A stretch of DNA of 6,346 nt from a virus (lineage: Duplodnaviria; Heunggongvirae; Uroviricota; Caudoviricetes), in IMG/VR virus record IMGVR_UViG_2675903253_000005, one strand, 5' to 3'. Below the pieces are notes generated by a model that did no database searches, was not told the origin of the DNA, and saw only the letters and a list, made by a program, of their open reading frames with translations. Numbering within the stretch: position 1 is the stretch's first letter; each line of letters begins with the position of its first letter. The translations under genes and the position numbers were made by a program. Shown one piece after another: positions 1-6,346 of the stretch.

Positions 1-1
1 C

Positions 2-409
2 GCTGCAGAGTCCTCAAAAAGCGCGGCGGCTACCAGTGCCGGTGCGGCGAAAACGTTAGAAACGAATGCGGCAGCGTCACAACAATCAGCAGCCACTTCT
101 GCATCCACCGCGACCACGAAAGCGTCAGAAGCTGCCACCTCAGCCCGGGATGCGTCGGCTTCAAAAGAGGCGGCAAAATCATCAGAAACGAACGCATCAT
201 CAAGCGCCAGTAGCGCAGCTTCCTCGGCGACGGCGGCTGCAAATTCTGCGAAGGCGGCCAAAACGTCCGAGACGAACGCCAGGTCTTCTGAAACGGCAGC
301 GGGACAGAGTGCCTCAGCTGCGGCAGGCTCAAAAACAGCGGCTGCGTCGTCTGCCAGCGCCGCGTCAACAAGTGCCGGGCAGGCCTCAGCCAGTGCCACC
401 GCCGCCGGN
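2..409 (+). CDS. stf: Side tail fibre (Stf-like) internal fragment from the Ala/Ser/Thr-rich shaft; no start codon in window, 3' end broken at the ambiguous base 409
   Basis: Frame-2 translation [68 protein letters not shown]... is near-identical to 1028..1436 of copy B and 2101..2512 of copy C. The apparent stop at 428-430 lies beyond the junction and belongs to the upstream flank, not to this gene. Confidence 0.8.
409..409. other. Single ambiguous base (N) at the breakpoint between shaft sequence and the stf upstream flank
   Basis: Sequence ...gccgccgg-n-ccaggtaacacag: shaft homology ends at 408 and the upstream-flank sequence (also seen at 1484) begins at 410. Confidence 0.9.
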
Positions 410-431
410 CCAGGTAACACAGTGTTATGAC

Positions 432-458
432 AGCCCGCCGGTTCAGGCGGGCTTTTTT
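432..458 (+). terminator. Rho-independent terminator directly upstream of stf
   Basis: 8-bp perfect GC-rich stem agcccgcc (432-439) / ggcgggct (446-453), 6-nt loop ggttca, then a T6 tract (453-458). Confidence 0.75.
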
Positions 459-460
459 GT

Positions 461-466
461 GGGGTG
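461..466 (+). promoter_or_regulatory. Putative Shine-Dalgarno element for stf copy B
   Basis: ggggtga immediately upstream of ATG 470. Partial match to the extended SD (GGAGGTGA); spacing is short. Confidence 0.4.
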
Positions 467-469
467 AAT

Positions 470-1461
470 ATGGCAGTAAAGATTTCAGGTGTACTGAAAG
501 ACGGCACAGGAAAACCGGTACAGAACTGCACAATCCAGCTGAAAGCAAAACGTAACAGCACCACGGTGGTGGTGAACACGCTGGCCTCAGAAAATCCGGA
601 TGAAGCCGGGCGTTACAGCATGGACGTTGAGTACGGTCAGTACAGCGTTATTCTGTTGGTGGAAGGATTCCCGCCGTCACATGCCGGGACCATCACCGTG
701 TATGAAGATTCCCGACCCGGTACGCTGAATGATTTTCTCGGTGCCATGACGGAGGATGATGCCCGTCCGGAGGCACTGCGCCGTTTTGAGCTGATGGTGG
801 AAGAGGTGGCGCGTAACGCGTCCGCGGTGGCACAGAACACGGCAGCCGCGAAGAAATCAGCCAGCGATGCCAGCACATCAGCCCGTGAGGCGGCAACCCA
901 TGCGACTGATGCTGCAGATTCAGCACGTGCAGCCAGCACGTCAGCCGGACAGGCCGCTTCGTCGGCTCAGTCAGCGTCTTCCAGCGCAGGAACGGCATCA
1001 ACAAAGGCCACTGAAGCATCAAAAAGTGCTGCCGCTGCAGAGTCCTCAAAAAGCGCGGCGGCCACCAGTGCCGGTGCGGCGAAAACGTCAGAAACGAATG
1101 CTGCAGCGTCACAAAAATCAGCAGCCACTTCTGCATCCACTGCGACAACGAAAGCGTCAGAAGCCGCCACTTCAGCCAGAGATGCGGCGGCCTCCAAAGA
1201 GGCGGCAAAATCATCAGAAACGAACGCATCATCAAGCGCCAGTAGCGCAGCTTCCTCGGCGACGGCGGCTGCAAATTCTGCGAAGGCGGCCAAAACGTCC
1301 GAGACGAACGCCAGGTCTTCTGAAACGGCAGCGGGACAGAGTGCCTCAGCTGCGGCAGGCTCAAAAACAGCGGCTGCGTCGTCTGCCAGCGCCGCGTCAA
1401 CAAGTGCCGGGCAGGCCTCAGCCAGTGCCACCGCCGCCGGAAAATCGGCAGAAAGCGCCGC
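470..1461 (+). CDS. stf: Side tail fibre protein Stf, 5' portion (copy B); truncated by the N-run at 1462
   Basis: ATG 470 gives [36 protein letters not shown]..., which matches my recollection of the lambda Stf N-terminus. The ORF track starts at the in-frame GTG 464; ATG 470 is preferred. About 95% identical to the same region of copy C by eye. Confidence 0.85.
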
Positions 1462-1483
1462 NNNNNNNNNNNNNNNNNNNNNC
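1462..1483. other. 22-nt run of N (scaffold gap or masked junction)
   Basis: Literal n characters. Flanked on the left by shaft sequence (equivalent to copy C position 2541) and on the right by the stf upstream flank. Confidence 0.95.
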
Positions 1484-1504
1484 CAGGTAACACAGTGTTA
1501 TGAC

Positions 1505-1531
1505 AGCCCGCCGGTTCAGGCGGGCTTTTTT
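1505..1531 (+). terminator. Rho-independent terminator directly upstream of stf (second copy of 432..458)
   Basis: Identical hairpin agcccgcc/ggcgggct with loop ggttca and T6 tract, ending 12 nt before ATG 1543. Confidence 0.75.
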
Positions 1532-1533
1532 GT

Positions 1534-1539
1534 GGGGTG
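1534..1539 (+). promoter_or_regulatory. Putative Shine-Dalgarno element for stf copy C
   Basis: ggggtga upstream of ATG 1543; same sequence as 461..466. Confidence 0.4.
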
Positions 1540-1542
1540 AAT

Positions 1543-4500
1543 ATGGCAGTAAAGATTTCAGGTGTACTGAAAGACGGCACAGGAAAACCGGTACAGAACT
1601 GCACAATCCAGCTGAAAGCAAAACGTAACAGCACCACGGTGGTGGTGAACACGCTGGCCTCAGAAAATCCGGATGAAGCCGGGCGTTACAGCATGGACGT
1701 TGAGTACGGTCAGTACAGCGTTATTCTGTTGGTGGAAGGATTCCCGCCGTCACATGCCGGGACCATCACTGTGTATGAAGATTCCCGACCCGGTACGCTG
1801 AATGATTTTCTCGGTGCCATGACGGAGGATGATGCCCGTCCGGAGGCTCTGCGCCGTTTTGAACTGATGGTGGAAGAGGTGGCGCGTAACGCGTCCGCGG
1901 TGGCACAGAACACGGCAGCCGCGAAGAAGTCAGCCAGTGATGCCGGCACATCTGCCCGTGAGGCGGCAACCCATGCGACTGATGCTGCAGGCTCAGCGCG
2001 TGCAGCCAGCACGTCAGCCGGACAGGCCGCGACTTCGGCTCAGGAGGCGTCTTCCAGCGCAGGAACGGCATCAACAAAGGCCACTGAAGCATCAAAAAGT
2101 GCTGCCGCTGCAGAGTCCTCAAAAAGCGCGGCGGCCACCAGTGCCGGTGCGGCGAAAACGTCAGAAACGAATGCTGCAGCGTCACAAAAATCAGCAGCCA
2201 CTTCTGCATCCACTGCGACAACGAAAGCGTCAGAAGCCGCCACTTCAGCCAGAGATGCGGCGGCCTCCAAAGAGGCGGCAAAATCATCAGAAACGAACGC
2301 CTCCACAAGCGCCAGCAGTGCAGCCTCCTCGGCAACGGCGGCAGGAAATTCCGTGAAGGCGGCAAAAACGTCCGAGACGAATGCTAAGTCTTCTGAAACG
2401 GCAGCGGAACAGAGCGCCTCAGCTGCGGCAGACTCTGAGACAGCAGCTGCATCATCGGCCCGTGAGGCGTCCATTAAGGCAGAGGAGGCAGCAGTCAGTG
2501 CCACCGCCGCCGGAAAATCGGCAGAAAGCGCCGCATCATCCGCTTCAACAGCCACAACGAAGGCTGGCGAAGCCACTGAGCAGGCCACGGCAGCAGCGAG
2601 GTCAGCTTCCGCAGCGAAGACATCCGAAACGAACGCGAAAGCGTCGGAAACCCGTGCAGAATCCTCAAAAACGGCTGGCGCATCGTCCGCCAGTTCGGCG
2701 GCGTCATCGGCATCATCGGCGTCTGCTTCAAAAGATGAGGCGACCAGACAGGCGTCAGCAGCGAAGGGCAGCGCCACGACGGCATCCACGAAGGCGACAG
2801 AGGCTGCTGGTAGTGCGACGGCAGCAGCTCAGAGCAAAAGTACGGCGGAATCTGCAGCAACGCGCGCTGAGACAGCGGCAAAACGGGCAGAGGATATTGC
2901 ATCCGCCGTGGCGCTTGAGGATGCGAGCACGACGAAAAAGGGGATAGTACAGCTCAGTAGTGCGACTAACAGCACTTCCGAGTCACTGGCGGCAACGCCA
3001 AAAGCCGTTAAGGCCGCGTATGACCTGGCTAACGGGAAATACACCGCACAGGATGCAACGACAGCACAGAAAGGGATAATCCAGCTAAGCAGCGCGACCA
3101 ACAGCACGTCTGAAACGCTGGCGGCAACGCCAAAGGCAGTAAAAGCAGCCAATGACAATGCTGAGAAACGTCTGCAGAAAGATCAGAACGGTGCGGATAT
3201 CCCTGGCAAAGACACCTTTACGAAAAATATTGGTGCCTGCCGTGCCTTCGGTGGGTCAGTAAGCACAACAACAGGAAACTGGACGACTGCACAGTTTATC
3301 GAGTGGCTGGATTCTCAGGGAGCATTTAACCATCCATACTGGATGTGCAAGGGTTCCTGGTCTTATGGCAATAATAAAATCATTACTGATACTGGCTGCG
3401 GTAATATTCATCTCGCCGGAGCTGTCATTGAAGTAATGGGGATAAAGTCAGCGATGACGATCCGCATTACCACTCCGACCACATCCAGCGGTGGCGGAAC
3501 AACCAACGCCCAGTTTACCTATATTAATCACGGAACAGATTATTCACCTGGCTGGCGAAGGGACTATAACTCCAGAAATAAGCCAACGGCATCAGAGATC
3601 GGGGCGCTACCGTCAGGTGGAACAGCAGTATCATCAGTTAATCTGGCTTCAAAAGGTCGGGTAGCCGCGCTGACAGACAATACGCAGGGGGCAGCAGGTC
3701 TTGAGTTATACGAGGTGTATAACAACGGATATCCAACAGCGTATGGAAATATCATTCACCTGAAAGGGATGACAGCCGTTGGCGAAGGTGAGTTACTCAT
3801 CGGCTGGAGTGGTACAAGCGGTGCTCATGCTCCGGCATTTATTCGTTCACGACGGGATACGACCGACGCAAACTGGTCGCCGTGGGCGCAGCTTTACACC
3901 TCGGCTCATCCTCCTGCAGAGTTTTATCCAGTCGGTGCACCAATCCCGTGGCCATCAGATACCGTTCCGTCTGGTTATGCCCTGATGCAGGGGCAGACTT
4001 TTGACAAATCTGCTTACCCGAAACTTGCAGCCGCTTATCCGTCAGGCGTGATCCCTGATATGCGTGGCTGGACGATTAAGGGCAAGCCCGCCAGTGGTCG
4101 TGCCGTATTGTCTCAGGAACAGGATGGCATTAAATCGCACACCCACAGCGCCAGCGCATCCAGTACGGATTTGGGGACGAAAACCACATCGTCGTTTGAT
4201 TACGGCACTAAATCCACGAATAACACCGGGGCGCATACGCACAGTCTGAGCGGCTCTACAAGTTCAGCTGGGGCCCACCAACATAGTCAGACTGGGCCCA
4301 GAACGAATAGCGGGAGTCAACCTACTGGAATGTTTCCGGCAGGGAGTACTCAAGTTAGCGGGACTAATCAGGTTGGTATCAGTGGCTCATTAACCAGTGG
4401 CACCTCCCAATGGGTAGGTAAATCATCTTCAGAAGGAAACCATACACACTCACTGTCCGGCACAGCAGCATCTGCGGGTGCACACGCGCATACTGTCGGT

Positions 4501-4626
4501 ATTGGTGCTCATACGCACTCTGTTGCGATTGGTTCACATGGACACACCATCACCGTTAACGCTGCTGGTAACGCGGAAAACACCGTCAAAAACATCGCAT
4601 TTAACTATATTGTGAGGCTCGCATAA
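1543..4626 (+). CDS. stf: Side tail fibre protein Stf, full length (1027 codons): N-terminal tail-attachment region, Ala/Ser/Thr-rich shaft, two phage fibre repeats, receptor-binding domain, His-box (HxH) tip
   Basis: Uninterrupted ORF from ATG 1543 to TAA 4624-4626. N-terminus [20 protein letters not shown]... and C-terminus ...[29 protein letters not shown] match my recollection of lambda Stf. [23 protein letters not shown] fibre repeats are present. Seven HxH motifs lie in the C-terminal 140 residues. Confidence 0.9.
1900..2930 (+). repeat. Low-complexity Ala/Ser/Thr-rich shaft region with degenerate repeats (recurrent K(T/S)SETNA and SAAA/TSA motifs)
   Basis: The protein is dominated by A/S/T/K/E here. 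SETNA recurs at about 2161, 2287, 2371 and 2626. The GCN-rich codons create long spurious antisense ORFs. Confidence 0.7.
2938..3150 (+). repeat. Two tandem phage tail-fibre repeats within stf copy C (one 44-aa unit plus one core unit)
   Basis: [44 protein letters not shown] (2938..3069) followed by [29 protein letters not shown] (3070..3150). This is the conserved fibre-repeat motif shared by lambda Stf, P2 H and Mu S-type fibres. Confidence 0.8.
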
Positions 4627-4649
4627 TGGCATTCAGAATGAGTGAACAA
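4626..4649 (+). CDS. tfa: Tail fibre assembly protein Tfa, first 8 codons only (MAFRMSEQ), then broken at the ambiguous base 4650
   Basis: ATG 4626-4628 overlaps the stf stop (TAATG). MAFRMSEQ matches my recollection of the lambda Tfa N-terminus. After n4650 the sequence is mid-stf shaft, not tfa. Confidence 0.6.
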
Positions 4650-4650
4650 N
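4650..4650. other. Single ambiguous base (N) at the breakpoint between the tfa 5' end and mid-stf shaft sequence
   Basis: ...agtgaacaa-n-gggcagcgccacgacgg: tfa-like sequence ends at 4649, and from 4652 the sequence parallels copy C from 2767. Confidence 0.9.
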
Positions 4651-4651
4651 G

Positions 4652-6346
4652 GGCAGCGCCACGACGGCATCCACGAAGGCGACAGAGGCTGCTGGCAGTG
4701 CGGCAGCGGCAGCACAGAGCAAAAGTACGGCGGAATCCGCGGCAACGCGCGCCGAGACAGCAGCAAAACGGGCAGAGGATATTGCATCCGCCGTGGCGCT
4801 TGAGGATGCGAGCACGACGAAAAAGGGGATAGTACAGCTCAGTAGTGCGACTAACAGCACTTCCGAGTCACTGGCGGCAACGCCAAAAGCCGTTAAGGCC
4901 GCGTATGACCTGGCTAACGGGAAATACACCGCACAGGATGCAACGACAGCACAGAAAGGGATAGTTCAGCTCAGCAGTGCGACTAACAGCACTTCCGAGT
5001 CACAGGCGGCAACGCCAAAAGCCGTTAAGGCCGCGTATGACCTGGCTAACGGGAAATACACCGCACAGGACGCTACGACAGCACAAAAAGGAATTGTCCA
5101 GCTCAGTAGTGCAACCAACAGCACATCTGAAACGCTTGCTGCGACACCGAAAGCAGTGAAAGCAGCTAATGACAATGCGAATGGTCGGGTACCTTCTGCC
5201 CGTAAGGTGAATGGTAAGGCGCTTTCAGCGGATATAACACTGACGCCGAAAGATATTGGTACGCTTAACTCAACAACAATGTCATTCAGCGGTGGTGCTG
5301 GTTGGTTCAAATTAGCAACGGTAACCATGCCACAGGCGAGTTCTGTTGTTTCAATTACGTTGATTGGTGGCGCTGGATTTAACGTGGGGTCACCTCAACA
5401 GGCAGGTATATCTGAACTTGTTTTACGTGCAGGTAATGGTAATCCGAAGGGGATTACTGGTGCTTTATGGCAGCGCACATTGACAGGGTTTACAAATTTT
5501 GCCTGGGTTAATACATCTGGTGATACTTACGATATTTACGTTGCAATCGGAAATTATGCGACTGGTGTAAATATTCAATGGGATTATACCAGTAATGCCA
5601 GCGTGACGATTCATACGTCACCAGCATATTCTGCTAATAAGCCGGAAGGGTTAACGGACGGTACAGTTTATTCACTCTATACGCCATCAGAGCAGTTTTA
5701 TCCGCCTGGCGCACCAATCCCGTGGCCATCAGATACCGTTCCGTCTGGCTATGCCCTGATGCAGGGGCAGGCTTTTGACAAATCTGCATACCCGAAACTT
5801 GCAGCGGCTTATCCGTCAGGCGTGATCCCTGATATGCGTGGCTGGACGATTAAGGGCAAGCCCGCCAGTGGTCGTGCCGTATTGTCTCAGGAACAGGATG
5901 GCATTAAATCGCACACCCACAGCGCCAGCGCATCCAGTACGGATTTGGGGACGAAAACCACATCGTCGTTTGATTACGGCACTAAATCCACGAATAACAC
6001 TGGTGCGCATACCCATAGTTTAAGTGGCAGCACGAATGCAGCTGGTAATCACAGCCATAGAGATGGCCGTCGATTTAACCCCAGTGTTTTTAAAGATACT
6101 TATCAATATGGTTATACAAGCTCAGGTCAAAATACCTGGGGTGTACAAGGCTCAGTAGGTATGTCTACGGGGTGGTTAGCGAATACCAGTATAGATGGTA
6201 ATCATAGCCATTCACTGTCCGGCACAGCAGCATCTGCAGGTGCACACGCGCATACTGTCGGTATTGGTGCTCATACGCACTCCGTTGCGATTGGTTCACA
6301 TGGACACACCATCACCGTTAACGCTGCTGGTAACGCGGAAAACACC
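4652..6346 (+). CDS. Stf-like side tail fibre, 3' portion of a distinct allele (copy D): shaft end, three fibre repeats, alternative receptor-binding domain, His-box tip with alternative insert; partial at both ends
   Basis: Frame-2 open reading from 4652 to the window end with no stop. The first ~170 nt parallel copy C 2767..2937. Repeats [15 protein letters not shown]... occur three times. Region 5708..6031 is near-identical to copy C 3934..4257, and 6212..6346 to 4450..4584. Confidence 0.85.
4823..5167 (+). repeat. Three tandem phage tail-fibre repeats in copy D (two 44-aa units plus one core unit)
   Basis: Units begin at K codons 4823, 4955 and 5087. Sequences are [88 protein letters not shown] and [29 protein letters not shown]. 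Confidence 0.8.

Follow-up and report, generated by a model that had tools for sequence, protein, structure and literature searches.

A described counterpart of the locus analyzed here is the stf-tfa tail-fiber module of phage lambda and of the Qin and Rac prophages. One part of the window (the whole stretch of 6346 nt that was analyzed), which we call piece C, resembles it in the lom terminator-like hairpin at its start, in an stf gene with phage_tail_N, Phage_fiber_2 and Collar domains, and in a His-rich C-terminus followed by a TAATG overlap with tfa. In contrast to its finished relatives, where tfa encodes 191–194 aa, the tfa of the window is cut off by the contig end and has 8 codons only. 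A second parallel may be drawn with the misjoins of short-read prophage drafts (PMC5320598, PMC3446322), with which the window has in common runs of N inside a deposited "contig", pieces that are paralogous repeats, piece ends at sites that differ among the paralogs, and spurious ORFs across the gaps; it differs in that its gaps, at 1 and 21 N, fall well short of any real distance between the pieces. The Sanger prokaryote pipeline, which consists of Velvet, SSPACE and GapFiller, records joins as N gaps, and its paper acknowledges that the greedy tools SSPACE and GapFiller may join contigs falsely (PMC5320598). In GapFiller, each step adds a single nucleotide to a gap edge, subject to a 0.7 majority rule; according to its authors, what stays unfilled is mainly repeats, in which the alternatives have equal ratios (PMC3446322). 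A third parallel is furnished by the internally deleted stf remnants of two finished loci (L003 and L004), which likewise bring shaft sequence close to the stf 3' end and the tfa start; however, these have the normal order after a deletion, with the shaft 5' of the stf end, whereas in the window this order is reversed.

By exact-protein look-up the window proved to be the entire WGS record CXFG01000234.1 of the assembly GCA_001250555.1, a small draft-genome scaffold that contains nothing but repeat copies of stf; a literature search on the accession numbers of the record and the assembly returned no matches. Four stf pieces can be distinguished in it (Table 1), and its three runs of N, the only ones present, coincide exactly with the three points, and no others, at which collinearity between these pieces breaks. 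The jumps at the N runs all lead to an earlier part of the gene model, those at 409 and 1462–1482 from the shaft to the base 5 nt past the lom stop codon (CCAGGTAACAC...), and that at 4650 from tfa codon 8 to mid-shaft.

Table 1. Pieces, gaps and the chimeric reading frame of the window
Feature	Coordinates	Strand	Basis
Piece A: stf shaft fragment, Ala/Ser-rich, separate allele	1..408	+	Comparison with piece B
Single-N gap, mid-shaft stf back to lom-stf intergenic region	409..409	.	N run
Piece B: lom terminator, intergenic region, initial ~1 kb of a second stf allele (start ATG, 470)	410..1461	+	Collinear with piece C
21-N gap, stf shaft back to lom-stf intergenic region	1462..1482	.	N run
Piece C: intergenic region, complete stf, first 8 tfa codons (4626–4649)	1483..4649	+	Pfam and genome comparison
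Spurious 68-aa ORF: MAFRMSEQ, X, then out-of-frame shaft	4626..4832	+	Gene call on the public record
Single-N gap, the junction under study	4650..4650	.	N run and sequence comparison
Piece D: interior and 3' portion of another stf allele	4651..6346	+	Open frame from 4652, Pfam

Pairwise comparison identifies pieces A, B and C as differing alleles: piece A has 13 mismatches to piece B in its first 163 nt, its last 245 nt being identical, and piece B has 56 mismatches to piece C across 1052 collinear nt. In complete genomes, the position at which piece B starts is 5 nt past the stop codon of lom. The stf of piece C runs from an ATG at 1543 (or a GTG at 1537) to the TAA at 4624–4626, coding for 1027 or 1029 aa, and combines the attributes of a lambda-type Stf, namely the N-terminal phage_tail_N domain (PF08400, 1.4e-71), Phage_fiber_2 repeats (PF03406, 6e-37, two domains), a Collar domain (PF07484, 7e-12) and a position downstream of lom. 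Piece D, which has neither a start codon nor an upstream part, extends from about residue 408 to 14 codons short of the stop; three Phage_fiber_2 domains and a Collar domain are detected in it, and the N-terminal domain is absent because the piece is a fragment. Pieces C and D have their ends in common and differ in the receptor-binding middle. What the window really holds is one intact lambda-type stf, its tfa cut by a contig end, together with parts of further stf alleles, at least two and probably three in number, that belong to other prophages in this draft genome.

At the junction itself, the stf stop (TAA, 4624–4626) and the tfa start (ATG, 4626–4628) overlap as TAATG (4624–4628), and of tfa only codons 1–8 (MAFRMSEQ) are present, 24 of their 24 nt being the same as in tfaQ, tfaR or tfa at four complete-genome loci. 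Directly 3' of codon 8 stands the N at 4650, after which 4651–4950 match 2766–3065 at 97%, with the initial 45 nt identical. Shaft codons restart at 4652, the counterpart of 2767, in a frame offset by +2 from that of tfa; this frame is closed upstream by a TGA at 4643–4645 and runs without a stop through the remaining 565 codons of the window. A tblastn search of the window with full Tfa recovered residues 1–8 only, and the window has no complete ORF of ~190 aa overlapping the stf stop. The original prediction, which had described the truncated MAFRMSEQ start after TAATG, the N followed by sequence paralleling position 2767 onward in a frame other than that of tfa, and the absence of the expected Tfa continuation, is thus borne out in each of these particulars. 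A 44-nt pattern spanning the junction has an expectation of 0.00 occurrences in shuffles of the window, which takes chance resemblance out of consideration, and the pattern matches the window's own N. No homology was found at the 4650 joint, and homologous recombination there was rejected on that ground. The 68-aa ORF across the joint matched no family in a Pfam search, and a cluster look-up found neither this chimeric ORF nor the stf to have an entry in the collection. On the public record a second gene call (470–1540, 356 aa) runs straight across the 21-N gap; both this and the 68-aa call are artifacts.

Finished genomes place the two sides of the junction in separate prophages at different chromosomal sites, a point that the original prediction did not contain. 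For the 3' half of piece C, the counterpart at 98.8% identity is the stf of a Qin-like prophage, in which a full tfaQ comes next and the gene order is J, lom, stf, tfaQ, the pin recombinase, ydfK, ynfT and ydfJ; L001 and L003 both have tfa, pin and ydfK after the C-type stf end. The counterpart of piece D, at 99.4% identity, is the stf of a lambda-like prophage in which a J-lom-stf-tfa module adjoins ybhB (L002), the same J-lom-stf-tfa context being present at L001. In finished loci the 24 nt that end piece C are continued by GCACGGACC... or CCACGGACC... and open a tfa of 191–194 aa, and the remainder of tfa past codon 8 reads [G/C]CACGGACCATAAAA, also given as [G/C]CACGGACCATAAAAATTTATAA. When the 301 nt around the junction (4500–4800) were compared with 5,426 complete E. 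coli genomes, one or both halves were matched in 4,159 of them, and in none were the halves adjacent; the flanks of the joint are collinear in no finished genome. Five records cover at least 80% of the query, with the halves 160–360 nt apart in spans of 463–666 nt, and the two of these that were read (L003 and L004) have the shaft upstream of the stf end, the normal order. No record of the phage collection covered both halves. Neither the exact 44-nt junction pattern nor a gap-tolerant version allowing 0–30 bases at the gap had a match in genome_contigs, viral_contigs or metagenome_contigs, while the normal tfa continuation, as a positive control, was found in at least 120 viral contigs. A close finished relative of the source strain is lacking, the best identities being 98–99%.

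Judged by these sequence comparisons, the junction at 4650 is almost certainly a false scaffold join or unfilled gap and not a real gene arrangement. The original prediction had proposed that a contig end was joined to another tail-fiber contig, and this is supported by the position of the joint on an N, by the two like joints in the window, by the scaffold being composed of stf only, and by the junction occurring nowhere else; its judgment that replacement of tfa by a second tail-fiber gene is unlikely agrees with the evidence for a false join. The like artifacts at 409 and 1462–1482, likewise marked by N, had gone unmentioned; they are further false joins of the same kind. A genuinely rearranged locus is not expected to carry an N at each of three new joints.

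The course of events may be pictured as follows. The window is a complete small scaffold from the short-read draft of an E. coli-type genome with several lambdoid prophages, whose stf genes have long near-identical blocks in common, so that the assembler would not have resolved the copies. Four stf contigs would then have been strung head to tail with N gaps between them. Piece C would represent the true end of one stf together with the first 24 nt of its tfa, halting one base before a G/C site that differs among the co-resident tfa alleles, and piece D would belong to the stf of another prophage, beginning one base after an A/G site of the shaft alleles. In the true genome, piece C would presumably continue as a complete tfa (~190 aa), and upstream of piece D would stand its own stf 5' half. 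The software step is proposed to have been scaffolding by read pairs, after which gaps were filled base by base until an ambiguous base halted the process; a Velvet/SSPACE/GapFiller-type pipeline is a candidate. SSPACE probably writes a single "n" where contigs ought to overlap but no overlap is found. A point against this course is that the link from the end of piece C to the start of piece D is not obviously explained by simple forward-reverse read pairs.

If extension stops at the first base without a clear majority, ends at variable sites are to be expected wherever several stf-tfa paralogs are present. Among the retrieved copies, 91 have C and 33 have G immediately after tfa codon 8; at the base that precedes the equivalent of the start of piece D, 18 copies have A and 9 have G, and the 5' half of stf expected there would end in ...CAGCAGCGA[A/G]. 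Within 150 nt on either side of these two sites, 4.3% and 7.7% of the columns are variable in the finished loci, and the chance of both ends abutting variable sites is ~0.003, a figure that is post hoc and based on a small number of alleles. Pieces A and B end 3 nt short of the nearest polymorphic site in our own allele sample and not directly beside one.

The alternative that survives best, although it is rather improbable, would have unplaced repeat contigs concatenated deliberately, or under the guidance of a reference, on the same reference stf with N spacers and no read-pair link. One gene model accommodates all four pieces, which overlap one another on it, and gaps of 1 and 21 N fit tools that place a minimal N where mapped contigs overlap; however, the order A, B, C, D is not the one obtained when the pieces are sorted along a single stf model, whether by start or by end coordinate, and the record holds no description of such a step. 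Were it nevertheless true, the junction would still be an artifact, and the biological conclusion would be the same.

Much further down the scale of probability lies a real rearrangement, in which illegitimate recombination would have deleted tfa past codon 8 and fused it to a second stf in mid-shaft, the N at 4650 and at the other joints being only low-quality base calls. It would make of the window a decayed lambdoid prophage with an orphan stf fragment in a tandem direct array of stf fragments. Internally deleted stf genes do exist in defective Qin-/Rac-like prophages, and the gap is just one N long. As a separate observation, the Qin-/Rac-like remnants at L003 (3778–5643) and L004 (3778–5440) are internally deleted stf pseudogenes and the tfaQ adjoining the closest C-type stf at L001 (5427–5994) is frameshifted; genuine decay of this module is therefore common in finished genomes. 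Yet a rearrangement of this kind has against it the N at all three novel joints of the window, the missing joint in the 5,426 complete genomes and every contig collection searched, the lack of homology at the joint, and the allelic SNPs that both sides abut, as they would in assembly stalls; the C-type and D-type genes, moreover, reside at different loci in finished genomes, and piece D would be left with no start codon.

Programmed tail-fiber variation, by which a Gin/Cin/Pin-type invertible segment or a diversity-generating retroelement would provide alternative stf C-terminal cassettes, is the least credible reading of all: a pin recombinase does lie downstream of tfa at the Qin-like loci with C-type stf, and pieces C and D do combine conserved ends with a differing receptor-binding middle, but every copy is in direct orientation, the window has no significant inverted repeats or crossover sites (only weak chance ones of 18–21 nt at 76–83%) and no recombinase or reverse transcriptase, the substitutions from C to D (T>C 3, A>G 3, G>A 2, T>A 1) are not adenine-specific, and piece D has no inverted tfa partner. 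Assignment to the invertible segments, which have inverted C-termini or tfa, crossover sites and an adjacent invertase, was rejected in view of the direct copies and the missing recombinase ORF, and assignment to the diversity-generating retroelements in view of the missing adenine bias and reverse transcriptase.

Returning to the false join, the junction at 4650 presents no biological novelty; it is an ordinary draft-assembly artifact, and no new biology follows from it. The value of recognizing it lies mainly in data hygiene, in that the spurious calls may pass for novel fusions or for tandem tail-fiber arrays. Multi-copy prophage tail-fiber genes are a predictable spot for scaffolding errors, and an N inside such regions is to be treated as a break and not as sequence.

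Several features of the stf pieces may be recorded in their own right. Taken entire, piece C has a best counterpart of 96.1% among the 5,426 complete E. coli genomes, while its halves are matched in different strains (98.7% for the 5' half and 98.8% for the 3' half); it is a natural mosaic stf, or else a chimera that arose within the contig in the ~250-nt blocks that are identical among alleles. Its best finished relative differs by one 132-nt unit (3035 versus 3167 nt), and such Phage_fiber_2 units of 132 nt (44 aa) occur twice in piece C (2918–3161) and three times in piece D (4803–5178). A G+C-rich hairpin with a T run (GACAGCCCGCCGGTTCAGGCGGGCTTTTTT) lies just 5' of each stf start, at 429–458 and 1502–1531, and looks like the lom terminator; it is present twice because pieces B and C both start there. 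The Ala/Ser-rich shaft is crossed by ORFs of 150–320 aa in the wrong frame or on the opposite strand (693–1652, minus; 2040–2789, minus; 2381–2947, plus), which as genes are unlikely and can be seen as by-products of the codon composition of the repeats. His-x-His motifs (HTHS, HAHT, HGHT) abound in the stf C-termini, at 4130–4560 and 5900–6320; the block that they form is conserved between pieces C and D, and the stretch between the Collar domain and this block differs.
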